Assembly: GCA_030695205.1 (NCBI GenBank)
Contig: JAUYTN010000040.1
Coordinates: 18,426-82,425 of the forward strand
DNA length: 64,000 bases
Source: Burkholderiaceae bacterium
Lineage (GTDB): Bacteria; Pseudomonadota; Gammaproteobacteria; Burkholderiales; Burkholderiaceae_C
Direction: 5' to 3'
The notes beneath the pieces are model-generated. The model saw nothing but the letters and a program-made list of their open reading frames with translations. It did not search any database and was not told the origin of the DNA. Shown one piece after another: positions 4,866 to 57,777 of the stretch; positions within the stretch are counted from its first letter, which is position 1, and every line of letters begins with the position of its first letter. Made by a program: the position numbers and the translations under genes.

Positions 4866-4871
4866 ATCTCC

Positions 4872-5981
4872 ATGAGTCTGACCACACTGCCAGCCAACCA
4901 GGCGCTGGCCCAATTGGAAGGGTTCGATGCCATCGTCGATGCCCGAACCCCCCTGGAACATGCCCTGGATCACCTGCCGGGAGCCGTCAACTGGCCCAGC
5001 CTCGACGACGACGAGCGGGTAACCATTGGCACCATGTACAAACAGGTCAACCCCTTCGAGGCCAAAAAGCGGGGCGCTGCGATGGTGGCCCGCAACGTAG
5101 CGCGACATATCGAGCGCGAGCTGCTGGATGCCCCCCGCAGCTGGCGACCACTGGTGTACTGCTGGCGTGGTGGCAACCGCAGCGGGGCCCTGGCCACCAT
5201 CCTGAGCGCCATCGGATTTCAGGTGACCCTGCTGGAAGGGGGCTACAAAGCCTTTCGCCACGCGCTGTTGGACGACCTGCCCCGCCAGGCCCAGCGCCTG
5301 AGCTACCGCGTGGTGTGTGGCCCAACCGGCAGTGGCAAAACCCGACTGCTGCACGCACTGCGCGCAGCAGGTGCCCAGGTACTGGACCTGGAAGCCCTGG
5401 CCAACCACCGTAGCTCGGTGCTGGGCCACATCCCCGGTGTGCGCCAGCCCAGCCAGAAGCACTTTGACACGCTGATCTGGAACGCCCTGCGCGGCATGTC
5501 AGACCAGCGCCCGGTGTATGTGGAGAGCGAAAGCAAAAAGGTCGGTAACGTCGGTGTACCCGATGCCCTGATGGACGCCATGCGCACCAGCCCCTGCATC
5601 GACCTGCACCTGCCAACCGACGAGCGGGTGGAGTTGCTGCTGGAGGACTACCGATTTTTCGTGACCGACCCGGAGTTTTTTTGCCAGCGCCTGCTGGCGC
5701 TCAACGAGCGCAGGGGCCAGGCCCAGGTGGGCGAATGGATCTCACAGGTGCGTGGTCAACAAACCCCCAAAGTGGTGCACTCGCTGCTGACTGAGCACTA
5801 CGACCCGATGTATGCGCAGTCCATTGGCCGAAATTTTGTGCAATACGGCCACGCACTGCCCTGCGAGTTGTCAAGCCGTTCACCTGAGGCCCTGGCGCAA
5901 GCAGCCCAGTGGCTCATGGACCATGAGCACCTCATGGCTCAGGCTGAACCTTCCGCCAGCCGACTGACCTCGTTGGCCTGA
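4872..5981 (+). CDS. selU: tRNA 2-selenouridine synthase
   Basis: Rhodanese domain with CWRGGNRS active-site loop followed by P-loop GPTGSGKT. 369 aa. Confidence 0.9.
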   Translation: MSLTTLPANQALAQLEGFDAIVDARTPLEHALDHLPGAVNWPSLDDDERVTIGTMYKQVNPFEAKKRGAAMVARNVARHIERELLDAPRSWRPLVYCWRGGNRSGALATILSAIGFQVTLLEGGYKAFRHALLDDLPRQAQRLSYRVVCGPTGSGKTRLLHALRAAGAQVLDLEALANHRSSVLGHIPGVRQPSQKHFDTLIWNALRGMSDQRPVYVESESKKVGNVGVPDALMDAMRTSPCIDLHLPTDERVELLLEDYRFFVTDPEFFCQRLLALNERRGQAQVGEWISQVRGQQTPKVVHSLLTEHYDPMYAQSIGRNFVQYGHALPCELSSRSPEALAQAAQWLMDHEHLMAQAEPSASRLTSLA

Positions 5982-8045: not shown

Positions 8046-10630
<2,585 letters not shown>

Positions 10631-10676
10631 GTCAATTCAGGGGGGCTTGTTAAAAAATGGATTCTACCGGGGTGGC

Positions 10677-10862
10677 TCAGCCCAGCAGCCACATACCCAC
10701 CACCCCCACCAGCACGGCACACAATCCGTAGAAGCGCAGCTGACCATCGGACAGTTGCAACAGGGTCGCAAACACCTGGCGCCACCGAGCGGGGGCCAAC
10801 AATGGAAAAAGGCCCTCAATCACGCAGACGAGGGCCACAGCCATCCACAGGCTCAACTCCAT
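10677..10862 (-). CDS. DUF2065-family small membrane protein
   Basis: 61 aa, two hydrophobic helices. Conserved position between hflC and hisZ. Confidence 0.7.
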   Translation of the reverse strand: MELSLWMAVALVCVIEGLFPLLAPARWRQVFATLLQLSDGQLRFYGLCAVLVGVVGMWLLG

Positions 10863-10868
10863 GCGGCG

Positions 10869-11765
10869 CTACTTGGCCGCAGCACCCACGCTGCTGCTGC
10901 GCATGGCCTTGAAGAAGTCGGACGAAGGATCCATGACCATGACGTCGGATTTCTTGGCAAAGCTGGTTTTGTAAGCCTCCAGGCTGCGGTAGAACTGGGC
11001 AAAGGCAGGGTCGCGGCCAAAGGCCTCGGCATAGGTGCGGGCCGCCTCGGCATCGCCCTCGCCCTTGACCTTCTGCGCTTCGCGGTAGGCATTGGCCAGG
11101 GTGACTTCGCGCTGGCGATCGGCAGATGCCCGAATCTGCTCGCCCTCTGCGGCGCCGGTTGAACGCAGCTGGTTGGCCACCTGCTGGCGCTCGGCCTCCA
11201 TGCGGCGATAGACCGACTCAGTGATGGTTTCGAAGTAGTCGATACGGTTGATCCGAACATCCACCACATCCATGCCCCAGGGCTTTTCGGCACTCCGCAC
11301 AGCGGCCAGTACCTGGCCGAGCACATCACCCATGAGCTGGTCGCGCCGGGTGGACAGCAGCTCGTTGACGGAGCGCTTGTTGACCTCTTGCTGGAACGAG
11401 TTGCGAACCACCCGTGTCAGCTGCAGGGCACCGGCACGCTCATCGAGCCCCACGTTGCGGATGTACTCCTGCGGCTCGGCAATGCGCCAGCGCACGTACC
11501 AATCGATCACCACACGCTGCTTTTCGGCCGTCAGCATGGGTTCGGCATCGCTGCTTTCCAGCGTCAGCAAGCGCTTGTCGATGTACGACACGTTTTGAAA
11601 CGGCGGGGGCAGCTTGAAGTTCAGCCCCGGCTCGGTAATGACCGAGCGAATCTGGCCCAGCTGGTACACCACGCCAAACTGGCGCTGGTCGACCACAAAA
11701 AGCGTCGAGCCCACAACGGCCAGCAGCAACAGCAGCGAGGCGCCAATCAATCCCAATCTGTTCAT
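10869..11765 (-). CDS. hflC: protease modulator HflC (SPFH/band 7)
   Basis: N-terminal TM segment plus SPFH domain. Directly downstream of hflK. Confidence 0.92.
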   Translation of the reverse strand: MNRLGLIGASLLLLLAVVGSTLFVVDQRQFGVVYQLGQIRSVITEPGLNFKLPPPFQNVSYIDKRLLTLESSDAEPMLTAEKQRVVIDWYVRWRIAEPQEYIRNVGLDERAGALQLTRVVRNSFQQEVNKRSVNELLSTRRDQLMGDVLGQVLAAVRSAEKPWGMDVVDVRINRIDYFETITESVYRRMEAERQQVANQLRSTGAAEGEQIRASADRQREVTLANAYREAQKVKGEGDAEAARTYAEAFGRDPAFAQFYRSLEAYKTSFAKKSDVMVMDPSSDFFKAMRSSSVGAAAK

Positions 11766-47179: not shown

Positions 47180-48484
47180 TTATTTGCTTTTTCCGGTGGA
47201 TGCGGACTCTTTGCGGACATGCCCCGCTGATACCGACGCTGGCGGGGGCACGTCGGTCCCCATGCGCTTGCGGTAGATATCCAGAAAATGGGCCAGGCGG
47301 CCAATGGCCTCCCGCAAATCGTCCTCATGGGGCAAAAACACGATGCGAAAGTGATCGGGCGCCTGCCAATTGAAGCCAGTGCCCTGCACAAGCATCACCC
47401 GCGTTTGCTCCAGCACCTCCAGAAAGAACGCCTGATCGTCTTCGATGGGATACACCTTGGGGTCCAGTCGGGGAAACATGTACAGGGCGGCCACCGGCTT
47501 GACACAACTTACCCCAGGTATCGCGGTGATGAGTTCATAGGCCAGATCACGCTGGCGGCGCAGGCGACCGCCCTCGCCCACCAGCTCATTGATGCTCTGG
47601 TACCCCCCCAGCGCTGTCTGGATGGCGTACTGGCCGGGCACGTTGGAGCACAGCCGCATGTTGGAGAGCATGTTCAGGCCCTCGATGTAGTCCCTGGCGG
47701 GCTTTTTGTCGCCCGAGACCACCATCCACCCCGCGCGGTAGCCGCAGGATCGGTAGCTTTTGGACAGCGAATTGAAAGTCAGGGTCAGCACATCCTCGCT
47801 CAGCGAGCCAATGGCAGTGTGCTGCACACCGTCGTACAGCACCTTGTCGTACACCTCATCGGCAAAAATCACCAGTCCGTGTTCGCGTGCGATGCCCACA
47901 ATGGCCTGCAACAACTCGGTTGAATACAGCGCTCCGGTGGGGTTGTTGGGGTTAATGACCACAATCCCCTTGGTTCTCGACGTGATTTTGGCCCGAATGT
48001 CGTCCAGACAGGGCATCCAGCCATTGGCTTCGTCGCAGCGGTAGTGCACAGGCGTGCCGCCGCTGAGGCTGGCCGCTGCGGTCCACAGCGGGTAGTCGGG
48101 CGAAGGCAGAAGCACTTCGTCGCCATCGTCCAGCAACGCATTCGTGGCCATCACGATCAGCTCGGACGCGCCGTTGCCCAAGTAAATGTCGTCCAGCGTG
48201 ACCCCTTTGATGCCTTGCTGCTGGGTGTAGTGCATGACGGCCTTGCGCGCCGCGAAGATACCCTTGCTGTCGGAGTAACCGGCCGAGTTGGGCAGGTTGC
48301 GGATCATGTCCTGCTGCACCTCTTCGGGGCTGTCAAACCCAAACACCGCCAGATTGCCAATGTTGAGCTTGATGATTTTTTGCCCCTCGTCCTCCATCTG
48401 GCGCGCGCGGTCCATGATGGGCCCGCGAATGTCATAACAGACGTTGGACAGCTTGGTCGATTTGGTGATGGTGCGTGCGGTCAT
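47180..48484 (-). CDS. PLP-dependent aminotransferase (AlaA/AlaC-like class I)
   Basis: KLSNVCYDIRGP N-terminal block and PLP-lysine SLSKSYRSCGYRAGW. Start at 48484 is preferred; 48496 is possible. Confidence 0.9.
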   Translation of the reverse strand: MTARTITKSTKLSNVCYDIRGPIMDRARQMEDEGQKIIKLNIGNLAVFGFDSPEEVQQDMIRNLPNSAGYSDSKGIFAARKAVMHYTQQQGIKGVTLDDIYLGNGASELIVMATNALLDDGDEVLLPSPDYPLWTAAASLSGGTPVHYRCDEANGWMPCLDDIRAKITSRTKGIVVINPNNPTGALYSTELLQAIVGIAREHGLVIFADEVYDKVLYDGVQHTAIGSLSEDVLTLTFNSLSKSYRSCGYRAGWMVVSGDKKPARDYIEGLNMLSNMRLCSNVPGQYAIQTALGGYQSINELVGEGGRLRRQRDLAYELITAIPGVSCVKPVAALYMFPRLDPKVYPIEDDQAFFLEVLEQTRVMLVQGTGFNWQAPDHFRIVFLPHEDDLREAIGRLAHFLDIYRKRMGTDVPPPASVSAGHVRKESASTGKSK

Positions 48485-48658
48485 GGGCAATGGCATCGGG
48501 TGGTCAGAAACGGGCAACGGCCACCGCAATGCCCTCTTTACCCGATGGACCTACCGTACCTTGCGTCACAAAGGTCAGGTCGGCGGGTTCAATCGGACAA
48601 AAAACCTGCGGCTGGCAGTGGGTACCTACCGACTCGGCGAGTACCCATCAGGGGAAAC

Positions 48659-48934
48659 CTACGATTTTGGCACGGCCTGCTCTAGCGCTTTCTGCCACAC
48701 ACGGGCATATGCGGGCCGCAGCTGCTGCTCTATCTCTGCCACGGTGCGGAAGACGTCTATTCCTGTCATCCCCGCCTGTTGCGCAAAGTAGGCGATTTCC
48801 CCCGCTTCGGGCTTTCGTTTACCTGATTTCCACTCACTGATTCGGGCGGGCTTTATGCCTAGGTCTTCTGCCATCGCTGCTTGCGCGCGTCTGGTTGTGG
48901 TGGCTGCTCGGTCTATCAGTTCGTCTATGGTCAT
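48659..48934 (-). CDS. phage HTH (Cro/CI-type) transcriptional regulator, probable prophage repressor
   Basis: 91 aa. HTH segment AQAAMAEDLGIKPARISEWKSGKRKP. Divergent from the replication module, like rstR/rstA in CTX-type phages. Confidence 0.7.
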   Translation of the reverse strand: MTIDELIDRAATTTRRAQAAMAEDLGIKPARISEWKSGKRKPEAGEIAYFAQQAGMTGIDVFRTVAEIEQQLRPAYARVWQKALEQAVPKS

Positions 48935-48969
48935 GGCGTGTTACCACTTTTGGGAATTTGTCTGCTACA

Positions 48970-49002
48970 TTACGCAAAACGGTAATTTACCTTTTTGCGT
49001 AA
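48970..49002. promoter_or_regulatory. operator-like inverted repeat TTACGCAAAA-N13-TTTTGCGTAA
   Basis: Perfect 10 bp arms at 48970-48979 and 48993-49002, 36 nt upstream of the repressor ATG. A third GCAAAACGG half-site lies at 49033-49041. Confidence 0.5.
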
Positions 49003-49177
49003 CACAGACTGTACACCCAAGCGGCAACCCATGCAAAACGGCACAGATCAAGCCACACGGCACGAACGACAAGCGGGGCAGGCTCCTACCTGTTACCCGG
49101 CTATTCCGTCCCCTGTGGCCTCTTTGCTGCTGTCCCTGCCCCCGTCGCCCCTCCCGCCTCTCCCCTACACACCCGAC

Positions 49178-49435
49178 ATGCATTCGGCCCGCTGCGCAGC
49201 TGCAGCCCGTGCCCGGGTCGTACTTGTTCAACACGTTCAGGTGTCCGACCGTTGCGGCTCTCAGTGCGGCCGCATCGCTGGCCTGTGGACCACACCTGAT
49301 GGTGTGGATCTGTGGGTTGTCGATTTGCTTGGCGGTGGCCGGACCCATGTCCCTGCCCGTCGCGTCACCCAGTGCAGCCACCTGGATGACCGCTGCATCT
49401 GCGCGGGTGAGTCAGTTGCCGGGGTGCAGCAATGA
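49178..49435 (+). CDS. hypothetical Cys-rich small protein upstream of rep
   Basis: 85 codons from the ATG at 49178. Its TGA overlaps the rep ATG (ATGA). No recognisable domain, and the local GC is higher than in the rest of the phage. Confidence 0.35.
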   Translation: MHSARCAAAARARVVLVQHVQVSDRCGSQCGRIAGLWTTPDGVDLWVVDLLGGGRTHVPARRVTQCSHLDDRCICAGESVAGVQQ

Positions 49436-50655
49436 GCCGCATTTTTTCCCCGGATTTTTTGGACCCCGTTTCAAGTGACGTGCATGTAACACGTCACTTT
49501 AGTCTCACCAGTGAGACAAACTGCTCAAAAAACGATCAAATCCCGCTAGCAAATTTGCAGCATTTCCCAGCGCATCACGAAACCACCAAAAACCCTCGTG
49601 TCTTCTGCGACTGGGTGTCGATGTACCAAACCCATGCCCCCGGCCTGCCCATGCTGCAGGACGGCTGCTTTGTCCGCTTCGATGCTGATGGCGGCCACGA
49701 GTCAACCACCCTCAAAAAACTCAAGGTTGAGGGGAGCCACGAAAGCGCGGTATTCGTTCGCTGTGACGGCCAGACGGTCCACTTTGAGGGCAACGTGTCC
49801 AAGTTTGCACGGCGGGACAACGTGTTCGGGTTCACCTTCGCCCAATGCGTCCAGCGCATCAATTCATTGCTCGGGACTCTCGGGCTTCCCCCGTTCACTC
49901 CAGGTCAAAAAATGGAAGTCAACAGCCCCAACGGTTGGCAAACCCATTGGACTGGTGCCCGCATTACCCGGCTTGACCTCACCGAAAACTTCGCTTCTGG
50001 CAGCAAGGAAAACGCATATCACTTCATGCGCTTCCTCTCCAGCCAACAGGCCTCCCGGCTCAAAACTGGCACCCACGGTGAAGGGGAAACAGTGGATTTC
50101 GGAAGGGGCTCCCGTCGGGTCTATTCCAAAGCCTACTTAAAAGGCCCTGAACTTCGCAAACACGCAAAAAAAGACACACGCGGACCATTACCCGAACTTT
50201 CAAAACCTTTCGATCCATATTTGTTTGAACTTGCCGACTGGTGCGATGCCGTTGGCCTTGTCCGATTCGAAACAACCTACAAATCTACATTCTTAATTGA
50301 CAATGGTTTTCAATTCCTTGGGGGAATTAACATGCAAAAACTTGAAATTGATTTCAACGAGCGCCAATCCGTGTTTACTCGCGCTTCCTGTGATGTCGAA
50401 GAAATTACCAATCTAGATTCCAAAACCCTTGCCATTTACCGGATGTGGGAGGCTGGCGATGATGTGACGTCGAAATGTAGCCGCGCCACCTTTTATCGTC
50501 ATCGCGCAAAGCTTCTTCCATATGGCGTCGATATTGCCATTAAAAGCAACGTAATCAAATTTCAACCCAAAACAAGGATTATCAAACTCGAACCTGTGTC
50601 CATGCCCGACTTTTACAAAATTCCATCCCCGTCATATATTCGCCTTGCGGCTTAA
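49432..50655 (+). CDS. filamentous-phage replication initiation protein (gene II / RstA-like)
   Basis: 407 aa first large gene of the plus-strand module, with a CDWVSM entry motif. Resembles gene II/X-family initiators of RSS/RSM/Cf-type inoviruses as far as I recognise them. Followed by a pV-size ORF. Confidence 0.75.
   Translation: MSRIFSPDFLDPVSSDVHVTRHFSLTSETNCSKNDQIPLANLQHFPAHHETTKNPRVFCDWVSMYQTHAPGLPMLQDGCFVRFDADGGHESTTLKKLKVEGSHESAVFVRCDGQTVHFEGNVSKFARRDNVFGFTFAQCVQRINSLLGTLGLPPFTPGQKMEVNSPNGWQTHWTGARITRLDLTENFASGSKENAYHFMRFLSSQQASRLKTGTHGEGETVDFGRGSRRVYSKAYLKGPELRKHAKKDTRGPLPELSKPFDPYLFELADWCDAVGLVRFETTYKSTFLIDNGFQFLGGINMQKLEIDFNERQSVFTRASCDVEEITNLDSKTLAIYRMWEAGDDVTSKCSRATFYRHRAKLLPYGVDIAIKSNVIKFQPKTRIIKLEPVSMPDFYKIPSPSYIRLAA
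49473..49499 (+). other. perfect 10 bp-stem hairpin inside the 5' end of rep
   Basis: AAGTGACGTG-catgtaa-CACGTCACTT read directly. Covers codons 14-23 of the annotated rep ORF. Confidence 0.6.
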
Positions 50656-50672
50656 TTCTGGAGAACCAAAAA

Positions 50673-50963
50673 ATGCTAATTCTTGAAGGTCTTATTCATT
50701 CAATTATTGCTAAGCCATTTCGCAACAAACAAACCGGTGAAACTGGCATTACCGTCAGTGCAAATATTATCGATGTTGCTTCAACTGGCGAGCCTTCTAT
50801 TGTTAGGTTGAAAATTGATGAATCTGCCGCCCCAGCTTGGCAGAAGGCGCAAGGAAAATCCATGCGTGCTGAGGTCCGACCATGGCACATGGTCAACGAG
50901 AAAGGCGGCGAAACTTCCGGCTATGCACTGGTTGATAAGAAAGCACTCCCCAATGTCATCTAA
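50673..50963 (+). CDS. probable ssDNA-binding protein (pV-like, by position and size)
   Basis: 96 aa ORF with a GGAGA Shine-Dalgarno, immediately after rep as in inoviruses. No motif-level proof. Confidence 0.55.
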   Translation: MLILEGLIHSIIAKPFRNKQTGETGITVSANIIDVASTGEPSIVRLKIDESAAPAWQKAQGKSMRAEVRPWHMVNEKGGETSGYALVDKKALPNVI

Positions 50964-51048
50964 GCACCACCAGCGCGGAATTCTCGTTGTCGAATTCATG
51001 GTGATATTTATCATCATCCCGTACCTCATACATGCAGCGGTGAAATAA
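50953..51048 (+). CDS. small hydrophobic phage protein (31 aa; pVII/pIX-size)
   Basis: MSSKHHQRGILVVEFMVIFIIIPYLIHAAVK. Overlaps the end of the pV-like ORF, and its stop overlaps the next ATG (TAATG). Confidence 0.4.
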   Translation: MSSKHHQRGILVVEFMVIFIIIPYLIHAAVK

Positions 51049-51224
51049 TGTATCAATGTCTCGATTGTTCCGCCTTCTTCGATGTTCCTTCTGAGGTCAC
51101 CGAAGAAATGATTATCGAACACGCTCAAGCTGGCGGTTTTTCTGGTGAGGACGTCGATTTGTCCCGTGTCGGTGAGGACATTTGCCCTGAATGTGGCAGT
51201 GGTTCCATCGATGAAATCGCATAG
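51048..51224 (+). CDS. zinc-ribbon small protein (58 aa)
   Basis: Not in the ORF track (<60 aa). MYQCLDCSAFF...DICPECGSGSIDEIA carries CxxC...CPxCG like FmdB-type zinc ribbons. Same strand as, and coupled to, the neighbouring phage genes. Confidence 0.6.
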   Translation: MYQCLDCSAFFDVPSEVTEEMIIEHAQAGGFSGEDVDLSRVGEDICPECGSGSIDEIA

Positions 51225-51287
51225 AAATTGCAACGGATAACCAAATTCTCGAATTTGGTTTTTCGGTGTAATTTCGCACCATTTCAC

Positions 51288-51536
51288 ATGAAAGCTTCAG
51301 AAATGAATAAGTTTTTCGCTCGCCAAGCTGCCCGCGCAGCGCTCGTGAAGTTCGGCACCGTTGGTGCTGTGTTGTCCGGCCTGGGCATGTCTGCTCATGC
51401 TGCCCTGCCCACGGAAGTCACCACCGCCATCACCACCGCAGGTGATGACATGGTTGCCGCTGTCACGGCCATCATCGTCGCCTTTGTGGCCTTCTGGGGC
51501 CTGAAGAAACTGGGTCAAAAACTCGGCTGGATTTAA
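51288..51536 (+). CDS. inovirus major coat protein (pVIII-like) precursor
   Basis: Signal peptide ending AHA. Mature part of about 44 aa has an acidic N-terminus (ALPTEVTTAITTAGDDM), a hydrophobic core (VAAVTAIIVAFVAFWGL) and a basic C-terminus (KKLGQKLGWI). Alternative start at 51303. Confidence 0.85.
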   Translation: MKASEMNKFFARQAARAALVKFGTVGAVLSGLGMSAHAALPTEVTTAITTAGDDMVAAVTAIIVAFVAFWGLKKLGQKLGWI

Positions 51537-51563
51537 TTCCTTCAAGCGCCCAACGACTTAAAC

Positions 51564-51588
51564 AAGGGGGTTACGTGCCCCCTTTTTT
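51564..51588 (+). terminator. rho-independent terminator after the coat gene
   Basis: GGGGG-ttacgtg-CCCCC followed by TTTTTT. This is the classical position after gene VIII. Confidence 0.8.
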
Positions 51589-51600
51589 ATTGGAGCCGCT

Positions 51601-51879
51601 ATGGCTGATATGTATTTGATTGGTTGTACCACTCCCCCCAATCTTTCCGGCACTTCGTTGGCTGCTCAGTGTCCGATTGCTAATCGTCGGGCCTTCCTGG
51701 TGGACAGTGCAAAACTCGAAGCTGCGAACCTCCAGCTTGAGTTAATCCCGTCATCTATTGAGTCTGAGCGTATTCAGGACATGGCCCAATTGTTCGGCCT
51801 GATGGTGTTAGTCCTGGTTGGTGTTTGGGGTGCTAAGCAACTGCTTAGGATATTTTCCGACGACACCACCAAGGATTAA
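51601..51879 (+). CDS. phage hypothetical protein with C-terminal TM segment
   Basis: 92 aa. TM segment LFGLMVLVLVGVWGA. Confidence 0.5.
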   Translation: MADMYLIGCTTPPNLSGTSLAAQCPIANRRAFLVDSAKLEAANLQLELIPSSIESERIQDMAQLFGLMVLVLVGVWGAKQLLRIFSDDTTKD

Positions 51880-51882
51880 AAA

Positions 51883-51951
51883 ATGCCATTGCCGCTTGAA
51901 TACCTTTTTGCCGCCTGCCTGTTCCTCATTCTTTGGGTGGCGTTCAAATGA
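51883..51951 (+). CDS. tiny hydrophobic ORF (22 aa)
   Basis: MPLPLEYLFAACLFLILWVAFK. Its stop overlaps the ATG of the pIII-like gene (ATGA). Confidence 0.3.
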   Translation: MPLPLEYLFAACLFLILWVAFK

Positions 51952-53393
51952 CACCATTTCTGTTTGTCGCCCTGCTCCTGGCATCAACTGGTGCATTTGC
52001 GCAGTCTCAAGGATCAACCCGCTTTGGTTCCGTCCCCCGCGAAGTGTTTCGGCCTATCCCTGGTGGTTATGAAATGCGCCAGGGTGGGTTTACCCCAAAC
52101 CTGACAAACGTCCCTCAACCCCTATCAATGGCTCAGGGCATCAAGGGGCGCGGTGCCTTCACCGGTGGTAAGCATTTCCGCATTGATGGCACAGGCGGCA
52201 TGAAATCCTACGACATGGGCGGTATTTTTGATATGCCTGTTCCAGGTACAAAGCAAACCGCCCCCGTTCAGGTGATCACAAAGAACATCCCAAAAAAGAA
52301 CGTCGCCAAAGCTGTTTTTAATGCCTTGCCCGTTATTGGCACTGCTGTTGCAGTATTGGAAATTGCCCACATTCTTGCGACAGAATGGGATTCCCGTGAC
52401 CCTGAGGGTTTCCAGCAGGACGGGCCAGCAGTTGTTGACCCTGTTGACAAATCAATTACCCGCATGAAAACTGAGTCTTATTGGGACTATGCTGGCCAAC
52501 GCTATTCTTCTCCAAGCGCTGCCTGTGCTTCCGTGTCCGATTATCAAGGCACGTCAATTGGTGCCATTGCTGTCTACGTAGCGTCACACCTTTATGATTG
52601 CCAGATTCCGTCCGGTTCTGTTGGTCAAACTGTCAAGGTAGAGCCGCCACCAGTTAAGCGGCCTATTCCTGCTGATATTTTGGATGAGATAGCCGATGAT
52701 ATGCCCGAGAACTTAGAGCCATTGGTCGATGATGCATTTGAGCAGGGCCACAATAAACCCGGCTTTGCAATTGATATCCCCAACGACTTGCCCAAAGAAT
52801 CTAGCGGACCTGCCACTACATCACCCAAAACCGAAACAGTGAACAAGCCGGACGGGTCAAAAGTAGAGACAACTACAACAACTGATTTCACATATCAGGG
52901 CGATAAAGTCAAAATTGATCAACGGAAAAAAACCGTTTACATCGATCCCAACGGCCTCGAAACACCCGGCGATGACATAACCGTCACGGGTGAAACCCCT
53001 GACCCCGTGGCCAGTGATCCCACCAGTCCGGGCACCGAAGATGCTCCAGCTGATCCATCCGTGCCGGACCCCAACCAGGACCCCAACAAAGAGCCCACAG
53101 AAATTGACCTCGATATCTGCAAGCTCAACCCCGATATCCTGGCGTGCAAAAAACTTGATTCCCCAGAAGAGGGAGAAATCCCCAAGGAGGATAGAGATAT
53201 CACCCTCCAGACTGGGCCAACGTTCGGCGGTGGTGCCTGCATCCCTAACGTTACCGTTCAGGTGTTCGGGACCACCATCACCGCTCTGAATTTCACCGAG
53301 CCCTGCCGCTGGCTCTCTGACTACCTCAAGCCCCTGTTGCTGCTCATGGCATCCATTAGTGCGGTGTTCATCGTCCTTCCTCGGGAGTCCTAA
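51948..53393 (+). CDS. minor coat / adsorption protein (pIII-like)
   Basis: ATG at 51948 gives the signal peptide MTPFLFVALLLASTGAFA. Contains a Pro/Asp/Thr-rich linker and a C-terminal membrane anchor LLLLMASISAVFIVL. Its position before the pVI-like and pI-like genes fits. Confidence 0.65.
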   Translation: MTPFLFVALLLASTGAFAQSQGSTRFGSVPREVFRPIPGGYEMRQGGFTPNLTNVPQPLSMAQGIKGRGAFTGGKHFRIDGTGGMKSYDMGGIFDMPVPGTKQTAPVQVITKNIPKKNVAKAVFNALPVIGTAVAVLEIAHILATEWDSRDPEGFQQDGPAVVDPVDKSITRMKTESYWDYAGQRYSSPSAACASVSDYQGTSIGAIAVYVASHLYDCQIPSGSVGQTVKVEPPPVKRPIPADILDEIADDMPENLEPLVDDAFEQGHNKPGFAIDIPNDLPKESSGPATTSPKTETVNKPDGSKVETTTTTDFTYQGDKVKIDQRKKTVYIDPNGLETPGDDITVTGETPDPVASDPTSPGTEDAPADPSVPDPNQDPNKEPTEIDLDICKLNPDILACKKLDSPEEGEIPKEDRDITLQTGPTFGGGACIPNVTVQVFGTTITALNFTEPCRWLSDYLKPLLLLMASISAVFIVLPRES

Positions 53394-53395
53394 AA

Positions 53396-53680
53396 ATGGG
53401 CGTTGGTGCTTTCCTCCTGGCTCTTGTGCAGCCCATCCTCTCCCGCATCTTGATTGCTCTGGGCTTCTCCGTTGTGACCTTCGTTGGCATGGACCTTGTT
53501 ATTCAGCAGCTGGTGGATTACGCGGTCAGTGCCTGGGGTGGCCTGCCTGGGAACATCCTTGCCCTAGCTGGCCTTGCTGGAGTCGGTGAGGCTCTTTCCA
53601 TCATCATGGGTGCAGTCCTTACCCGTTTGCTCATTTGGCAGCTCACCAAGTCTGTCAAGCTGATGGGGGTCAATACATGA
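53396..53680 (+). CDS. minor coat protein pVI-like (DUF2523-type membrane protein)
   Basis: 94 aa with three hydrophobic segments. Its stop overlaps the Zot-like ATG. Confidence 0.6.
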   Translation: MGVGAFLLALVQPILSRILIALGFSVVTFVGMDLVIQQLVDYAVSAWGGLPGNILALAGLAGVGEALSIIMGAVLTRLLIWQLTKSVKLMGVNT

Positions 53681-54795
53681 TTACCATCATCACGGGCACA
53701 CCCGGTGCGGGCAAAACCCTCTACAGCATCTCCAAGCTCGTCAAGGGCGTATTGGGAACCACCGTCAAGCGCACCAAAGACGATGGCACGACCGAAGAGA
53801 TACCCCGGCGCATCGTCACCAACATCAATGGCCTGTTGCTTGACCACGAGCTGATAGACGATGGTCCCGAGCATGGGCTAAATGGGTGGTTCAAGTGGTG
53901 CAAGCCCGGCGATTTCATCGTGTTTGATGAGGTTCAAAAACCTTGGCCTCCCCGTGCTGCTGGCTCTAAGGTGCCCGACTACATATCGGAGCTTGAGACC
54001 CACAGACACAAGGGCGTGGACTTCGTGTTGATCACGCAAAACCCCATGCTCATTGATCGCAACGTAACCGCCCTAGCAGGCCGGCACGTTCACGTTCGGC
54101 GCTTCGGGTCCATCGGCGCGGCTATCGTCTATGAGTGGGACCACTGCAGCCGATCCCTCCTCTATTCCAAGGCACTGGCCAAATCCACCTGGAAATACGA
54201 CAAAAGCGTTTTCAAGCTCTACAAGTCGTCGGAGCTCCACACCAAACCACAAACCCGAGTCCCCCCCCTCGTGTTCGTCGTTGTCCTGGCCCTGGCGGCG
54301 GGTGCGTATCTCATACCCTCCACCATGTCCAGGATTGCCGAGAAATCAGATCCTGGTCAACCCGGCGACCTTTCACAATCACCAGCTGGCCCCGGCTCCC
54401 CAGCTCGACCAGGACAACCAGGACAACCAGCGGCCAACGTGCACGCATTGGCACGTGTCCCCGGCCCATCTGACAATGAGGCCACCAACGGACCCATGTT
54501 GGATGACCTCATCCTTACGGGTGTACTGTCTGCAGCCCAAAACCTCGCCATCTTCCAATGGGTTCCCAACGGTCTACCCCGGTACACCTTCACGCCCAGC
54601 CAGCTGCAGCGCTGGGGAATGGTCGTCAGGGTCTATGCTGACTGCCGCGCTGAGCTGACTGACGAACATGGCCGAAAGCGGCATTTCGGTTGCATGCCCG
54701 GTGTTCCTGTTGACACCCTCCCCCCTGCTCTCACTGGCCCAGCTGGTGATGACTCACAAACCGAGCGCAGCCGCCCTTTCAATGGGTCCGTGTGA
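53677..54795 (+). CDS. Zot / pI-like phage assembly ATPase
   Basis: ATG at 53677. Walker A GTPGAGKT, Walker B IVFDEVQ, HRHKGVDFVLITQNP, a central TM segment (LVFVVVLALAAGAYLI) and a periplasmic C-domain. Confidence 0.9.
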   Translation: MITIITGTPGAGKTLYSISKLVKGVLGTTVKRTKDDGTTEEIPRRIVTNINGLLLDHELIDDGPEHGLNGWFKWCKPGDFIVFDEVQKPWPPRAAGSKVPDYISELETHRHKGVDFVLITQNPMLIDRNVTALAGRHVHVRRFGSIGAAIVYEWDHCSRSLLYSKALAKSTWKYDKSVFKLYKSSELHTKPQTRVPPLVFVVVLALAAGAYLIPSTMSRIAEKSDPGQPGDLSQSPAGPGSPARPGQPGQPAANVHALARVPGPSDNEATNGPMLDDLILTGVLSAAQNLAIFQWVPNGLPRYTFTPSQLQRWGMVVRVYADCRAELTDEHGRKRHFGCMPGVPVDTLPPALTGPAGDDSQTERSRPFNGSV

Positions 54796-54843
54796 ACTCT
54801 TGGTGTAACTGTATTGATTTTGTAACGATCTGATTAAATCTTT

Positions 54844-54873
54844 TCGCTACAGAAAAAATACAGTTCAACCAGG
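54844..54873. repeat. 30 bp direct repeat, copy 1 (TCGCTACAGAAAAAATACAGTTCAACCAGG)
   Basis: Matches 55350-55379 at 28 of 30 positions. Overlaps the stop codon of the KfrA_N-like gene. Confidence 0.85.
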
Positions 54874-55278
54874 AGTCAGCCACCCGAAAACCTTTGCTGC
54901 TTTCGTCCATGCCTCTACTGCGTCCGCTGGGTCGTAGTGGGGACGTGCTTTCGGTTTCCCGTCTTTGACGTAAGTCGCCAGCAGTGGCCGAACGGCTGCG
55001 CGTAGTTCTTCGTTTTCTGCCCGCGCCTTTTCGGTTGCTGCTTTTGCTGCTGCCAGCATGTAGCCCATGATTTCCAGCTGGCTGCGCAGGTTCTCCAGTT
55101 GCTTCTCTGCCGTGTTTTCGACGGTCTGCTGCTGGTCCTGCCACACTTTGATCATCGGTCCTATTGTTGAAAATGACCCCGTTCCCGCCTCTTCGCGGAC
55201 TGCGGCTAGCGTCGGCTTTTTGCCTGCTGCTTTCAGGTTGTCACAAATCCGATTGACTTGATGCTGCTTGATTGCCAT
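54865..55278 (-). CDS. KfrA_N-like DNA-binding protein (possible second phage regulator)
   Basis: N-terminus VNRICDNLKAAGKKPTLAAVREEAGTGSFSTIGPMIKVWQDQQ matches the plasmid KfrA N-terminal DNA-binding pattern. Coiled-coil-like centre. Confidence 0.7.
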   Translation of the reverse strand: MAIKQHQVNRICDNLKAAGKKPTLAAVREEAGTGSFSTIGPMIKVWQDQQQTVENTAEKQLENLRSQLEIMGYMLAAAKAATEKARAENEELRAAVRPLLATYVKDGKPKARPHYDPADAVEAWTKAAKVFGWLTPG

Positions 55279-55349
55279 GGTGCTATCTCCTGGTAGAACT
55301 GTAGTGCCAATGTAGTAAATTATACTACAGAAACGCTACACCATATCAA

Positions 55350-55379
55350 TCGCTACAGAAAAAATACACTTTAACCAGG
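55350..55379. repeat. 30 bp direct repeat, copy 2 (TCGCTACAGAAAAAATACACTTTAACCAGG)
   Basis: Lies in the promoter region of the KfrA_N-like gene, next to clustered CTACAG/CTGTAG motifs (55296-55360). Confidence 0.85.
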
Positions 55380-55404
55380 TATTTTGGCGGCGTCCTGGTA
55401 TGCC

Positions 55405-55427
55405 GGGGGGGATGGGGGGATGGGGGG
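55405..55427 (+). repeat. G-tract GGGGGGG-AT-GGGGGG-AT-GGGGGG
   Basis: Read directly. The partly complementary C-tract CCCCCCACCCCCTCCCC is at 55499-55515. A small hairpin ATGGGGG-gaa-CCCCCAT is at 55420-55436. Confidence 0.8.
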
Positions 55428-55611
55428 AACCCCCATGGTGAACCGGACGTTTCGCCCTCCAGCCCTGCCACTTGGCGAAGTTCTGCCCCCGGATCAAGCC
55501 CCCCACCCCCTCCCCTTTTGATAAACAAACGGCGCACCCCCTGCCCACCCATCACCGGAGCGCGTGCCCCCGCATTGCGTTAGGGATCGTTAGTCGCGCA
55601 AGCGATGGAGA

Positions 55612-55637
55612 CAACCCCCACCCACTGCGCGGGGTGG
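55612..55637. repeat. 26 bp inverted repeat, left arm (CAACCCCCACCCACTGCGCGGGGTGG)
   Basis: Perfect reverse complement of 55968-55993. The match extends to 34 bp with 2 mismatches. Each arm also folds on itself (CACCCAC/GTGGGTG). Confidence 0.9.
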
Positions 55638-55664
55638 GTGCGCCCGGACGTAAGGGGCACCAAT

Positions 55665-55719
55665 CCCGCAATGACTGAGAGACAAGATGTGCAGTGCCCC
55701 GGAATGACCGATTGACATG
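55665..55719. repeat. 55 bp direct repeat, copy 1, containing two GCCCCGGAATGAC-type iterons
   Basis: Matches 55885-55939 with 2 mismatches. The internal 13-mers are about 31 bp apart. Confidence 0.9.
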
Positions 55720-55778
55720 ATGTGCAGCGCCCCGGCCTGCCCCCCGTAGTCGGTGCGCTGCCCCGACGAACCCCGGAG

Positions 55779-55832
55779 CGATTGCCCCCAGCTGGGGCTG
55801 CGGCGGAGCCCGGCCACGGCTGGGGGCAATCG
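55779..55832. repeat. central hairpin with 14 bp perfect stem CGATTGCCCCCAGC / GCTGGGGGCAATCG and a 26 nt loop
   Basis: Read directly. Lies midway between the 26 bp inverted repeats. Confidence 0.9.
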
Positions 55833-55884
55833 TGGAGTGTGAGGACTGCAGCGCCCCCGGCGTAGGGTGCAGGCCGTGCCCTGC

Positions 55885-55939
55885 CCCGGAATGACTGAGA
55901 GACAAGATGTGCAATGCCCCGGAATGACCGATTGACATG
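55885..55939. repeat. 55 bp direct repeat, copy 2
   Basis: See copy 1. Same orientation as copy 1 although the flanking 26 bp repeats are inverted. Confidence 0.9.
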
Positions 55940-55967
55940 GAGGGATTGGGGCACCTTTCGCCAGCAT

Positions 55968-55993
55968 CCACCCCGCGCAGTGGGTGGGGGTTG
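55968..55993. repeat. 26 bp inverted repeat, right arm (CCACCCCGCGCAGTGGGTGGGGGTTG)
   Basis: Perfect reverse complement of 55612-55637. About 90 bp upstream of the ORF starting at 56082. Confidence 0.9.
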
Positions 55994-56081
55994 GCTCCAC
56001 CGTAGGCCAGAGCCCGGTTTTTGCGCAGCAAAAAAACGCCCAAAACCTTTGCTATCCTCAAAAACACAGGAGGACAACAAC

Positions 56082-56474
56082 ATGGGACTAGAAGACCGCG
56101 ATTGGTACAGAGAAGAACACCGGCAAAAAAGACGAGCCGAATACACGCAACCACCACCCCCACCACCACCCCGAGCCCCACCAGCCAGGCCAACAACACG
56201 AACCACCCGGGCAACTCAGCCTCCCCCCGATTTGTCCGTGTACATCGATGCCTTCGAAAAAGACAAACGTCTCAACTTTTTGAAGTGGTTTCTGTTCTTC
56301 CTCGTGCTCTGTTTTGCCACATACGGCGCCCTCGCCATCGTCCGCGACTTCAAACAAAAAGCAGTCGCCAAACACCAACAAACAGCACCCACACAACAGC
56401 CAAACAAACACATCCAGGAACAACCACCGCCCCAGCCACCACAACCGCAAAAGCCCCAGCCTCGCTACCTTTGA
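56082..56474 (+). CDS. proline-rich single-pass membrane protein, hypothetical
   Basis: ATG at 56082 with a strong AGGAGG Shine-Dalgarno. MGLEDRDWYREEHR N-terminus, PPPPPPP tract, TM segment FLKWFLFFLVLCFATYGALAIV and a Gln/Pro-rich tail. Stops 3 nt before the recombinase ATG. Confidence 0.65.
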   Translation: MGLEDRDWYREEHRQKRRAEYTQPPPPPPPRAPPARPTTRTTRATQPPPDLSVYIDAFEKDKRLNFLKWFLFFLVLCFATYGALAIVRDFKQKAVAKHQQTAPTQQPNKHIQEQPPPQPPQPQKPQPRYL

Positions 56475-56477
56475 ACC

Positions 56478-57095
56478 ATGCTCATCGGTTACGCCAGAGT
56501 CAGCACCACAGACCAGGACACAGCACTCCAACTGGATGCACTCAAGCGAGCGGGTGTAAAAAAAATCTACGCTGAAAGTTGCTCCGGCATCAGCACCAGG
56601 CCACAGCTACAGACACTACTTCACGACATGCCCCCCGGGGCTGTCCTGGTCGTCTGGAAAATTGACCGCATCGCCCGAAGTCTCCCCGACCTCCTGCACA
56701 TCCTGCAGCGGCTCAAGACAAGGCGCGTCGGATTGCGCTCCCTTACCGAGCCTCTCGACACATCCACCCCAATCGGGGAATTCATGCTTCAGATACTCGG
56801 CGCAGTCGCCCAGCTCGAACGAGCCATGATCCGGGAGCGCGTCATAGCCGGACAAGTCGCAGCCATCCAGCGCGGCCAAAGACATGGACGGCCATCGTCC
56901 ATCAACGAAACTCAGAAACTCAAGATTTTGGAAATGTTCGCCGCTGATGCGACACGCTCACACATTGCGCGGGAGCTGGGTGTCAGTCGCTGGGCTGTAT
57001 GCAGGGTGATTGGTCAGGCGCAGGACCCGAACCACCCGAAATATGGCCCACACCGTCCAGTGTTGGGGCCTTTGTTGGACAATCCGAAGAGCTGA
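56478..57095 (+). CDS. small serine recombinase (resolvase/invertase family)
   Basis: MLIGYARVSTTDQ catalytic Ser motif, LVVWKIDRIARS, SLTEPLDTSTPIGEF and a C-terminal HTH (SHIARELGVSRWAVCRV). 205 aa. Confidence 0.92.
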   Translation: MLIGYARVSTTDQDTALQLDALKRAGVKKIYAESCSGISTRPQLQTLLHDMPPGAVLVVWKIDRIARSLPDLLHILQRLKTRRVGLRSLTEPLDTSTPIGEFMLQILGAVAQLERAMIRERVIAGQVAAIQRGQRHGRPSSINETQKLKILEMFAADATRSHIARELGVSRWAVCRVIGQAQDPNHPKYGPHRPVLGPLLDNPKS

Positions 57096-57165
57096 AATAA
57101 CAATTTCACCATACTTCAGGGGCTGCGCCGCTGAACACCGCGCAACCAACCCACGCACCCACACC

Positions 57166-57564
57166 ATGAAACTGCACGCCGACGCTGCCAGCCACACCAC
57201 CGTCCAGGCGCACGGGCCCGGCTGGATCGTGGTTGGGGGCGAGCGCATTGCTCACAGCGTGGCCCTGTCCTCCACTGGCGAGCGCTTCGATTGGCCTGGC
57301 GTCGCGTTCGAAGCGCTGAACGCCACCCATTTCGACGCATTGCTGCGGCTCAACCCCGAGCTGGTGATTTTTGGCAGCGGTACCAAGCACCGGTTCATTC
57401 ACCCGGCGCTGCACGCAAACCTGATGGCCCAGCGGGTGGGGCTTGAAACCATGGATACGGCTGCGGCATGCCGCACCTACAACATCCTCGCTCAAGAGGG
57501 ACGACGCGTAGTAGCCGCCCTGCTGATCGAGTCGCCTGCCGAGCCCACCAGCGCCAAAGGCTGA
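57166..57564 (+). CDS. Mth938-like (DUF498) domain protein
   Basis: ATG at 57166. ELVIFGSGTKHRFIHPAL...MDTAAACRTYNILAQEGRRVVAALL is typical of the family. Confidence 0.8.
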   Translation: MKLHADAASHTTVQAHGPGWIVVGGERIAHSVALSSTGERFDWPGVAFEALNATHFDALLRLNPELVIFGSGTKHRFIHPALHANLMAQRVGLETMDTAAACRTYNILAQEGRRVVAALLIESPAEPTSAKG

Positions 57565-57777
57565 CAGTTAAGGGCATACCAGGTGGCGGCCAGGGGGCGG
57601 GTGACATCCGCCCTGGTGGGTCGAATGTGCTCGCAATCCCGTCCTGACCAGTGGTTCGGTTAAAATACCGGATTGACGTCTGACCACTGGCTGACATCGC
57701 CTCCTGTTCTCGCGGGATGCAACATCCGTGCGACAGGCGTTGCCGCTTACACCAACTTAGGTCAGGGTACCCACAAC

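Follow-up and report, generated by a model that had tools for sequence, protein, structure and literature searches.

An inovirus prophage with a proposed serine integrase between two housekeeping genes of a Curvibacter-like freshwater bacterium

The DNA analyzed here (64,000 nucleotides; "the window," to which all positions refer) belongs to a Curvibacter-like freshwater Comamonadaceae bacterium. An inovirus prophage of 8,439 bp occupies positions 48661–57099. It sits in the 242-bp divergent promoter region shared by an alanine-aminotransferase-like and a DUF498/Mth938-like gene. Its GC content was 54.6%, compared with 61.8% in the remainder of the window (0.526 versus 0.618 for the segment from pII to Zot). 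The initial annotation had placed an inovirus-type prophage of ~8.5 kb, lower in GC than the flanking genes, between two divergent housekeeping genes, which profile matches, empty sites, and a circular form (see below) bear out. All its ORFs were found in the ORF list where it had put them; its ends (48648 and 57122) came within 13–23 nt of the true ones, 48661 and 57099 (57106 including a 7-nt core), to which they had to be moved.

Unless marked otherwise, the genes lie on the plus strand. At the left end, a minus-strand HTH (Cro/cI-type) repressor-like gene (48659–48934) matched PHROG 638 (transcriptional regulator, E 1e-13) and, weakly, HTH_3. Between it and the divergent orf134–pII operon sits a near-perfect palindrome (48970–49002; 16 + 16 nt, 1-nt spacer, 94% complementary), a candidate operator. 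The Cys-containing orf134 (49031–49435; the "Cys-rich ORF" of the initial annotation) had no match in Pfam, PHROG, or NCBIfam profile searches, and is kept upstream of pII in relatives (53% in prophage L098; 35–44% in L100, L101, L104, L106, and L107). Its stop overlaps (ATGA) the start of a pII-type rolling-circle replication initiator of 407 aa (49432–50655), which scored above cut-off with both PF05144 (62 bits) and PF05155 (47 bits) and also matched PHROG 702 (E 5e-70) and TIGR01629. Profile searches gave no match for the 96-aa ORF in the pV position (50673–50963). Its AlphaFold model (pLDDT 84.9) has OB-fold topology, and all of the top 50 Foldseek matches in the PDB were OB domains of SSBs, bacterial or mitochondrial (best E 6e-4, TM 0.4–0.56); this predicted fold makes it a candidate ssDNA-binding protein in the role of pV. 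The next ORF (58 aa, 51048–51224) has a zinc-ribbon-like CxxC...CxxC pattern with only sub-threshold zinc-ribbon matches, and is conserved (100% in L082/L089, 31% in L098). The previously listed 31-aa ORF (51145–51240) lies out of frame within it, is unsupported, and is probably spurious.

The structural module starts with the major coat protein precursor (pVIII-like; 51288/51303–51536), which matched PF05356 Phage_Coat_B (26.7 bits, cut-off 23.5) as well as PHROG 7106 and 1646. A signal peptide ending in AHA precedes a mature part of 45 aa with acidic N-terminus, hydrophobic core, and basic C-terminus, and the gene is followed on the same strand by a strong intrinsic-terminator-like hairpin and T-run (51564–51593; hairpin 51564–51584, 8-bp stem with 5 GC pairs, then TTTTATTGG), so that both the pVIII precursor and the terminator of the initial annotation hold. 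No profile matched the 92-aa orf92 (51601–51879); it has a C-terminal hydrophobic segment, is conserved (95–99% in L082 and L089, 49% in L098), and is a candidate minor virion protein. A hydrophobic 22-aa ORF (51883–51951), present in the ORF list and likewise without match in profile searches, is possibly a pVII/pIX analogue. The pIII-like adsorption protein (486-aa ORF, 51933–53393; true start likely the ATG at 51948) has a signal peptide and C-terminal anchor and matched the C-terminal region of TspB (PF05616, 23.4 bits, cut-off 20). It is 71% identical to its counterpart in L089 and 45% to that in L082, compared with 98–100% for the adjoining genes, and its N-terminal and central parts vary strongly among copies. 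A pVI-like minor coat protein (DUF2523, 94 aa; 53396–53680; PF10734 64 bits, PHROG 1242 E 3e-23) and a pI/Zot-type morphogenesis ATPase (53677–54795; PF05707 89 bits, PHROG 197 E 2e-70) complete the module. The ATPase has the Walker A motif GTPGAGKT, a single TM segment, and a domain at its C-terminus. The core inovirus genes (pII, coat B, DUF2523, and Zot) thus all scored above their Pfam cut-offs, including the Zot, gene II/X, and coat profiles that had been proposed as a check.

Right of Zot, a minus-strand gene (54865–55278) encodes a KfrA_N-family DNA-binding protein of 137 aa (PF11740, 55 bits, cut-off 26), a candidate second regulator, bracketed by a 30-nt direct repeat (54844–54873 and 55350–55379, 93% identical). 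Farther on, a GC-rich region of ~400 nt (55606–56005, plus strand) is predicted to fold into one long imperfect ssDNA hairpin with 39-nt inverted arms (ΔG −136 kcal/mol versus −88.6 ± 3.5 for shuffles, z = −13.4). It was present in every phage copy and absent from host loci and the remainder of the window; it may be a packaging signal and/or minus-strand origin, or alternatively a MITE. The proline-rich orf130 (56082–56474) has one TM segment and an N-terminal DRDWYR motif; residues 1–40 matched PHROG 13107 (unknown function, E 5e-7), and its homologues are all unnamed. Its stop lies 3 nt ahead of the start of the last gene, a small serine recombinase of the resolvase/invertase type (205 aa, 56478–57095; PF00239, 136 bits). 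The KfrA_N-family gene, the 800-bp non-coding region with the hairpin, and the 130-aa ORF for a membrane protein, coupled to the resolvase gene, had been absent from the initial annotation.

The aminotransferase and DUF498 genes are directly adjacent in >70 Comamonadaceae genomes (∼75 of 80 related genomes, namely those with a contig covering both), and none of the 80 carried a phage gene. Six contigs of the same species, 98–99% identical to the flanks, also lacked the element, their two flank alignments overlapping by 7 nt. The empty aminotransferase/Mth938 site that had been suggested as a check is therefore documented, and by alignment these sites are attB. Two independently assembled contigs of 8,477 bp from two sequencing runs (L089 and L090) each had a 30-nt terminal overlap; once trimmed, they were exact rotations of each other (0 mismatches across 8,447 nt). 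In this circularly assembling form of 8,447 bp, the resolvase gene leads directly into the HTH gene, and the joint gives attP; the circular junction anticipated earlier thus exists in public assemblies. A tandem prophage array can also yield a circular assembly, and a related tandem pair occurs in L114. One run (SRR29675971) held both an empty attB (L086) and the attP junction (L092).

These data bear on whether the element is still a mobile unit. That it might be a domesticated or defective remnant is suggested by the lack of any pIV/secretin gene within it and by the HTH ORF, which crosses attP and encodes 123 aa in the circular form (gene calls in L089/L090/L097) but only 91 aa in the integrated copy, where a TAG stop codon (48659–48661) arises at the junction. 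However, the 91-aa protein retains the entire region matching PHROG 638, and many active inoviruses, for example CTXφ, lack pIV; the missing secretin implies that export would rely on some host secretin. All ORFs are full length and, except for the variable pIII and HTH genes, 95–100% identical to the circular form, which is why the prophage is read as intact. Furthermore, contigs with 98–100% identical flanks include both occupied and empty sites; the species is polymorphic for the insertion. Loss of mobility is accordingly very improbable. Still harder to credit is a composite in which an inovirus (HTH to Zot) adjoins an independent small integrative module made up of KfrA, the hairpin region, orf130, and the resolvase. 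The jump in GC to 0.62–0.67 at 55500–56250 (versus 0.42–0.56 in the structural module) and the MITE-like character of the 400-nt inverted-repeat region would fit it, but both parts share one 8,447-bp circle, both are jointly missing from the empty site, and Dulem virus 61, L111, L113, and L115 repeat the arrangement Zot–orf–recombinase with a convergent small ORF and then Rep behind it.

To locate the exchange, attB (L084–L088 and L081), attP (L089, L090, L092, and L097), attL, and attR were compared. The core reads ACGATTT in attL (48661–48667; crossover AC at 48661–48662, attB sequence to the left and attP sequence to the right) and ACAATTT in attR (57100–57106; AC at 57100–57101, host sequence to the right). 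At the third core position, attB and attR have A whereas attP and attL have G, and the base preceding AC differs too; these differences on both sides confine the exchange to the single AC dinucleotide, a pattern that, judged from the junctions, is the signature of a serine recombinase. In another contig (L094), a different flank begins directly behind this AC. The sites, ..GCTGAAATA-AC-GATTTTGGC.. (attP) and ..GGGAAACCT-AC-AATTTCACC.. (attB), share only AC-N-ATTT, and attB is intergenic and not in a tRNA gene.

The 205-aa recombinase is proposed to be the prophage's own integrase/excisionase. Small resolvase/invertase enzymes usually require accessory sites or host factors, none of which were identified here. 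The best solved homologue is the Gin invertase (E 5e-35), with the GYxRVST, DRxxRS, and ER motifs aligned, and the C-terminal region gave sub-threshold HTH_7 (21.3, cut-off 23.8) and HTH_23 matches. Gin/Hin invertases and γδ/Tn3 resolvases share its domain architecture and length and align at the catalytic Ser9, DRxxRS, and ER; they recombine two sites within a single molecule, helped by accessory sites or by an enhancer together with Fis, whereas the genetic outcome here is intermolecular integration between dissimilar attP and attB. Because its closest solved structures belong to normally intramolecular invertases and resolvases, not integrases, and because dyad symmetry of attP and attB is weak (8–10 of 24 positions), the enzyme might instead resolve multimers or invert DNA, with integration left to a host system such as XerCD, which CTXφ and φRSS use, or to another factor. 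This is unlikely: the crossover spans 2 nt and is flanked within the 7-nt "core" by mismatches on either side, unlike the identical 6–8-nt overlap of tyrosine recombinases, and the attB site is not dif but a promoter region flanked by two housekeeping genes. In addition, the attP crossover AC lies 4 nt past the resolvase stop codon, the related recombinase genes of L111, L112, and L113 have a (T)ACAATTTC-like motif right behind their stop codons, and the element holds no second attP-like site, so that no invertible segment is defined. The homologous φRSM enzyme is also described in PMC4471427, citing Askora 2011, as experimentally shown to catalyze integration and excision. Integration by the small serine recombinase, as first suggested, is thus what the junctions indicate.

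The earlier view that such enzymes serve only a few inovirus lineages needs correction. Besides the present prophage, seven Burkholderiales loci, Dulem virus 61, and three IMG/VR contigs have this recombinase clade beside pVI–Zot modules; relatives 51–58% identical adjoin pVI–Zot or pII in L100, L101, L108, L110, L111, L113, L114, and L115, and serine recombinases are already among listed inovirus integration genes (Roux et al, 2019; PMC6813254). The comparison with RSM-type phages held for the recombinase but not for the element. The φRSM-type Ralstonia phages (RSM1, RSM3, and Rs551; genus Habenivirus) are likewise temperate inoviruses of 8–9 kb with a betaproteobacterial host and a resolvase/invertase-type recombinase of ~200 aa (44–47% identical; 47% for RSM1/RSM3), their attP likewise adjoins the int and repressor genes (PMC4471427), and ORF13 of RSM1, beside int, shows a short match to the N-terminal motif of orf130. 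The remaining genome is essentially unrelated (Zot 25% identical, pII without match). In RSM1, attP (TGGCGGAGAGGGT, 13 nt identical to the host tRNA-Ser) precedes int and separates it from a repressor gene of the same orientation; here, in contrast, attP follows the int stop, where int and the HTH gene converge, and the target is intergenic rather than tRNA-Ser.

For both Zot (49–54%, the 54% over the N-terminal half) and the recombinase (46%), the top match in the phage database was Dulem virus 61 (PP511899.1), an inovirus from a lemur-saliva metagenome; its pVIII is 62% and its pVI 40% identical. Its genes are arranged as in the prophage: Zot and one ORF precede the recombinase, and behind a convergent small ORF come Rep, coat, TspB-like pIII, and pVI. 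It is, however, 6.8 kb rather than 8.4 kb long, lacks the KfrA-like gene and the large hairpin region, and its replication protein has no detectable similarity to pII. The closest cultured phages are distant (pII ≤31%, Zot ≤54% across half its length). Closer in pII (54–65% identical) are uncharacterized Comamonadaceae inovirus prophages (L098 from a lake-metagenome bin, L099 from Paracidovorax konjaci, L100/L101 from Polaromonas, and IMG/VR UViGs L104–L109), which differ from the prophage at species level and lie elsewhere in their chromosomes. L098 shares orf134, pV, the zinc-ribbon ORF, pVIII, orf92, pIII, pVI, and Zot and had no recombinase match; L100, L101, L105, L107, and L108 also have a related serine recombinase (43–54% identical).

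Taken together, 48661–57099 very probably is an intact, recently mobile temperate inovirus, a filamentous ssDNA phage. In its proposed life cycle, the recombinase would synapse attP with attB, Ser9 would act as the nucleophile for 2-nt staggered double-strand cuts at AC, and subunit rotation and religation would follow, as experiments demonstrated for the φRSM homologue. The HTH protein, bound to the palindrome at 48970–49002, would keep the prophage quiet together with the KfrA-like protein. Excision by the same recombinase, perhaps with a phage factor, would release a double-stranded circle for rolling-circle replication initiated by pII; the 96-aa OB-fold protein would coat the plus strand, and the pI/Zot ATPase would extrude it via a host secretin as pVIII, pIII, pVI, and the small proteins are added. 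The prophage is therewith a well-resolved new member of an established kind of phage and does not represent a novel one.

The initial annotation had read the block between the aminotransferase and DUF498 genes (window 48661-57099) as an inovirus prophage, an interpretation that is supported by the evidence below; the finding is real. All ORFs it had listed were recovered in the same order and orientation (ORF list, 45.5-60.5 kb), and the profile searches it had proposed for Zot, pII and coat protein yielded matches exceeding the curated Pfam cut-offs. The pII initiator (49432-50655) contained Phage_CRI (PF05144; 62 bits) and G2P_X_C (PF05155; 47 bits), and also matched TIGR01629 (57.7 bits) and a PHROG replication protein (E 5e-70). 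The major coat protein (51303-51536) matched Phage_Coat_B (PF05356) at 26.7 bits (cut-off 23.5); its translation, read directly, comprised a signal peptide, an acidic N-terminus, a hydrophobic core and a basic C-terminus, and its gene was followed by a strong terminator-like hairpin. The pI/Zot ATPase (53677-54795) matched PF05707 at 89.2 bits (cut-off 20.3) and PHROG 197 (Zot-like; E 2e-70). Directly upstream of it lie the genes for a pIII-like protein of 486 aa (51933-53393), the C-terminus of which matched TspB (23.4 bits), and for a pVI-like protein (53396-53680; DUF2523, 64 bits; PHROG minor coat protein, E 3e-23). The divergent HTH gene corresponds to a PHROG transcriptional regulator (E 1e-13), and the right-hand ORF (56478-57095) encodes a recombinase with a Resolvase domain (PF00239; 136 bits), in the C-terminal part of which HTH_7 (21.3 bits, cut-off 23.8) and HTH_23 both remained sub-threshold.

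The 96-aa ORF in the position of pV (50673-50963) gave no match in a sequence-profile search. Its AlphaFold model (pLDDT 84.9) has OB-fold topology, and the best 50 PDB matches were all OB domains of single-stranded-DNA-binding proteins; the gene following the initiator is, thus, predicted to encode an ssDNA-binding protein at the level of fold only. The 31-aa ORF (51145-51240), which had been listed among the small ORFs, was rejected as a gene, as it overlaps the conserved 58-aa ORF out of frame and lacks profile support. Three features had not been mentioned: on the minus strand, a gene of the KfrA_N family (54865-55278; 55 bits), an 800-bp non-coding region, and orf130, encoding a membrane protein of 130 aa (56082-56474), the stop codon of which precedes the resolvase start by 3 nt. 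Homology searches with the 96-aa and 130-aa proteins retrieved just a few unnamed proteins, homology and profile searches assigned no function to orf130 or orf134, and Rfam returned zero RNA-family matches for 48000-57600. The lower GC content that had been noted was evident (0.546 for the element and 0.526 from pII to Zot vs 0.618 in the remainder of the window). At 8,439 bp as prophage and 8,447 bp as circle, the element falls within the size of small circular inovirus genomes (about 5-15 kb); together with Zot, the gene II/X initiator, coat and pIII/pVI, this places it, by sequence, among the inoviruses (Tubulavirales).

Using the aminotransferase as query, 80 Comamonadaceae loci were fetched, the best matches being from Curvibacter (90% amino-acid identity). 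Where both sides were covered, the order homoserine dehydrogenase, aminotransferase, DUF498, Bcp, PhoH was conserved, aminotransferase and DUF498 genes were divergent neighbours, and phage, KfrA, orf130 and resolvase genes were absent. An exact-protein look-up with the DUF498 protein retrieved six contigs (L081, L084-L088; 98-99% identical to the window flanks) that lacked the element and one (L082) that carried a variant of it at the same site. Where the element is missing, alignment of the left flank stopped at window position 48667 and that of the right flank began at 57100, leaving an overlap of 7 nt. The empty aminotransferase/DUF498 site that the initial annotation had asked for, therefore, exists both in relatives and in six near-identical contigs.

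With the resolvase protein as query, this type of look-up retrieved contigs (L089, L090, L092 and L097) in which the resolvase gene runs directly into the HTH gene, the alignments breaking at 57106 and 48661, again with an overlap of 7 nt. Two of them (L089 and L090), from separate runs, are 8,477 nt long each, and in both the ends share a direct overlap of 30 nt; with this overlap removed, the two sequences differ only by rotation (0 mismatches over 8,447 nt). A circular molecule is expected to yield this outcome in a k-mer assembly, although a tandem array would look alike. The predicted attP junction is, in any case, present in public assemblies, and in one run (SRR29675971) it occurs together with the empty attB. 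It is, thus, unlikely that the block is the remnant of a dead prophage, because its genes are intact, and occupied, empty and circular forms coexist. It is equally unlikely to be a composite of two elements, as circle and empty site alike treat it as a single unit. Long direct repeats at its ends were absent; identity between the att sites amounts to just 2+4 nt, which makes them recognizable solely via comparison with the empty and circular forms.

This comparison allowed the crossover to be located. The empty host site reads GGGGAAACCT-AC-A-ATTT-CACCATAC (attB) and the site on the circle GCTGAAATA-AC-G-ATTT-TGGCACGG (attP), whereas the left and right prophage junctions read GGGGAAACCT-AC-G-ATTT-TGGCACGG (attL) and GCTGAAATA-AC-A-ATTT-CACCATAC (attR), respectively. 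The base following AC (A in attB, G in attP) stays with the right arm, and the base preceding it (T in attB, A in attP) stays with the left arm. As the markers on both sides segregate with their arms, the sequences imply that strand exchange must have taken place inside the AC dinucleotide (48661-48662 and 57100-57101). Crossing over within 2 nt, between sites that are otherwise unlike, is the hallmark of serine recombinases; tyrosine recombinases, XerCD included, employ an identical overlap of 6-8 nt, which the crossover observed here does not fit. That host XerCD mediates integration, with the resolvase serving another role, is, therefore, unlikely, also considering that the target is not dif and where attP is positioned. 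Inoviruses depending on XerCD/dif (CTXphi, phiRSS, XacF1) have a dif-like attP that recombines with dif of the chromosome, and no recombinase of their own, whereas the element encodes one, its attB is a promoter region within synteny conserved across Comamonadaceae, and its crossover is confined to 2 nt.

Related recombinase genes on three further contigs (L111, L112 and L113) are trailed, just past the stop codon, by a (T)ACAATTTC-like sequence, which suggests that the clade shares a conserved att core. A generalized pattern, GAAA-N3-AC-R-ATTT-Y, matched attL only when the window was searched with it, because the spacing between GAAA and AC differs between the left arms of attP and attB; as a motif, it is, thus, of no use. 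In attP and attB, dyad symmetry is only weak (8-10 of 24 positions). On another contig (L094, 1190-1977), the sequence following the recombinase gene diverges exactly past AC; the unrelated flank that follows holds a NERD-domain-like ORF. This indicates a second junction type at the same cut site, probably a secondary site of integration or a different host.

The recombinase comprises 205 aa and, among solved structures, is closest to Gin invertase (E 5e-35) and gamma-delta resolvase; its N-terminal GYxRVST (with the nucleophile Ser9), DRxxRS and ER motifs align with those of the solved homologs. Invertases like Gin, Hin and Cin have their invertible segment between two crossover sites in inverted orientation; in contrast, no second att-like site was found in the element, and the products are integration junctions. 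The large serine integrases (phiC31, Bxb1) are 450-700 aa long and carry recombinase and zinc beta-ribbon domains after the catalytic domain, whereas in this shorter enzyme Resolvase alone scored above cut-off, followed by weak matches to small HTH domains. Its best phage matches were Dulem virus 61, a metagenomic inovirus (46%), and the filamentous Ralstonia phages RSM1, RSM3 and Rs551 (44-47%); identity to ORF14 of RSM1/RSM3 was 47% over 178 aa (E 5e-42).

The phages of the phiRSM type, thus, share with the element a homologous resolvase-type Int, and in both cases attP lies immediately beside int and the repressor gene. According to the account in PMC4471427, which cites Askora et al, 2011, the resolvase-like Int of RSM phages was shown to catalyze integration as well as excision, acting at a 13-nt sequence that attP and tRNA-Ser have in common. 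The arrangement differs, however: in RSM1, the attP core precedes int and is located between it and the repressor gene, whereas here attP follows the int stop by 4 nt, within or beside the 3′-end of the HTH ORF, between convergent genes. The target differs as well; the attB of phiRSM resides in tRNA-Ser(UCG) with 13-nt identity, that of the element in the intergenic promoter region between aminotransferase and DUF498, with only AC-N-ATTT shared. A tRNA search of 40000-64000 found none near the element, and none adjoins most of the related recombinase genes; targeting of a tRNA was, therefore, dismissed. The rest of the genome is unlike that of Habenivirus (RSM1-like): in tblastn against RSM1, Zot was 25% identical, and pII, pVIII, pIII and pVI gave zero matches. 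The N-terminus of orf130 contains a DRDWYR motif (56082-56130) that matches the start of ORF13 of RSM1 (L102, 7831-7881; 59% over 17 aa) and also PHROG 13107. In both phages, the gene is a neighbor of that for the recombinase; orf130 is possibly an accessory factor.

The position of attP affects the HTH ORF, which spans it: the protein has 123 aa in the circle (L089, 5938-6309) and 91 aa in the prophage, where it ends at a stop codon (48659-48661) built of host and phage bases. The last 32 residues of the circle's version read antisense to the 3′-end of the recombinase gene. A related arrangement is that of phiRSS0, the repressor gene of which holds the dif site, distinguishing it from the superinfective phiRSS1. 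If the altered tail changed activity or stability of the repressor, the phage would be able to tell its integrated state from the episomal one; that integration reprograms the regulator in this way is, however, rather improbable, and as Dulem virus 61 has no HTH/attP overlap of this type, the overlap may be incidental.

Within the non-coding region, ∼400 GC-rich nt (55606-56005) can fold as ssDNA into one long imperfect hairpin (dG −136 kcal/mol, z = −13.4); its ends form inverted arms of 39 nt, and direct repeats of 55 nt lie inside it. In the window, the repeat motif of 55600-56000 occurs inside the element only and, among ∼180 fetched loci, only in phage copies, which makes an origin from host REP sequences unlikely. 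The hairpin is a candidate for a packaging signal or minus-strand origin, for either of which its length would be unusual, or, alternatively, for a phage-borne MITE. Nearby, a 30-nt direct repeat (93% identical; 54844-54873 and 55350-55379) brackets the KfrA_N-family gene, and further CTACAG/CTGTAG motifs are present in 55296-55360; these are possibly binding sites of its product.

A search of 50,697 phage records with the complete element as query revealed zero near-identical DNA matches; it is, thus, not a described isolate. The closest cultured or deposited phages reached at most 31% identity for pII and at most 54% for the N-terminal half of Zot; around the recombinase, Dulem virus 61 has its genes in the same order. 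Other Comamonadaceae genomes and IMG/VR contigs contain prophages whose pII is 54-65% identical, several of them carrying a related recombinase. Recombinases 55-58% identical are encoded directly downstream of pVI-Zot in Hylemonella, Curvibacter, Rhodoferax and Burkholderiaceae MAGs; at a Paracidovorax locus (L110), the related gene is near just a weak pVI-like match. The initial annotation had regarded integration by a small serine recombinase as known from only a few lineages, which needs correcting, because the recurrent linkage to pVI-Zot argues that the pairing is common in Burkholderiales; serine recombinases are also named among inovirus integration genes by Roux et al, 2019 (PMC6813254). 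In a Rhodoferax MAG (L114), two related pVI-Zot-recombinase units (1757-3760 and 9491-11470) follow each other 7,734 bp apart, representing a tandem inovirus prophage array.

The recombinase does not differ between any copies of the element (100% identity), and for pVI, Zot, pVIII and pII identity amounts to 94-100%. In contrast, pIII shares 71% with L089 and 45% with L082, and the HTH protein 65% with L089 and 59% with L092; in L082, an unrelated 131-aa ORF (2328-2723) replaces the OB-fold gene (window 50673-50963). In this copy, which occupies the same attB, pIII (3714-5087 vs window 51933-53393) is embedded between genes 94-100% identical. The copies, thus, differ by the usual mosaic, with host-range and immunity modules swapped within one phage species.

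From the gene set, the polymorphic insertion at a single site, the circular junction and the crossover dinucleotide beside the recombinase gene, and by analogy to the respective families, a life cycle can be proposed. The recombinase would integrate and excise the double-stranded form at AC, pII would nick the plus-strand origin for rolling-circle replication, and the OB-fold protein would cover the plus strand. pI/Zot together with a secretin of the host, as none is encoded by the element, would push out the filament, which would gain pVIII, pIII, pVI and small proteins. The HTH protein, bound to the near-perfect palindrome at 48970-49002, and the KfrA-like protein would control the orf134-pII operon.

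Upstream of the DUF498 gene, just 59 nt of native sequence remain (57100-57166), the recombinase gene reads toward DUF498, and the aminotransferase promoter region is separated from its divergent partner by 8.4 kb. Expression of both host genes may, thus, be altered in lysogens. As such prophages have no long end repeats, pipelines in which att repeats must reach 10 bp or more, like that of Roux et al, 2019 (PMC6813254), are unable to delimit them. The compact 205-aa enzyme, whose att sites need not exceed a few tens of bp, could be tried as an integration tool for Comamonadaceae. The element is a biologically ordinary temperate filamentous phage, the Zot-domain protein of which is the assembly ATPase and does not indicate a toxin. 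As judged from its genome, it is a temperate inovirus with an RSM-like small serine integrase, from a lineage of Comamonadaceae phages that are uncultured. Noteworthy are its non-tRNA intergenic target, the location of attP in the repressor ORF, shortened from 123 to 91 aa, and the large structured non-coding region. With attB, attP, attL and attR known, a circular form existing, and a natural sequence marker fixing the crossover to one dinucleotide, it represents a natural, fully resolved case of integration by a serine recombinase in an inovirus outside Ralstonia.
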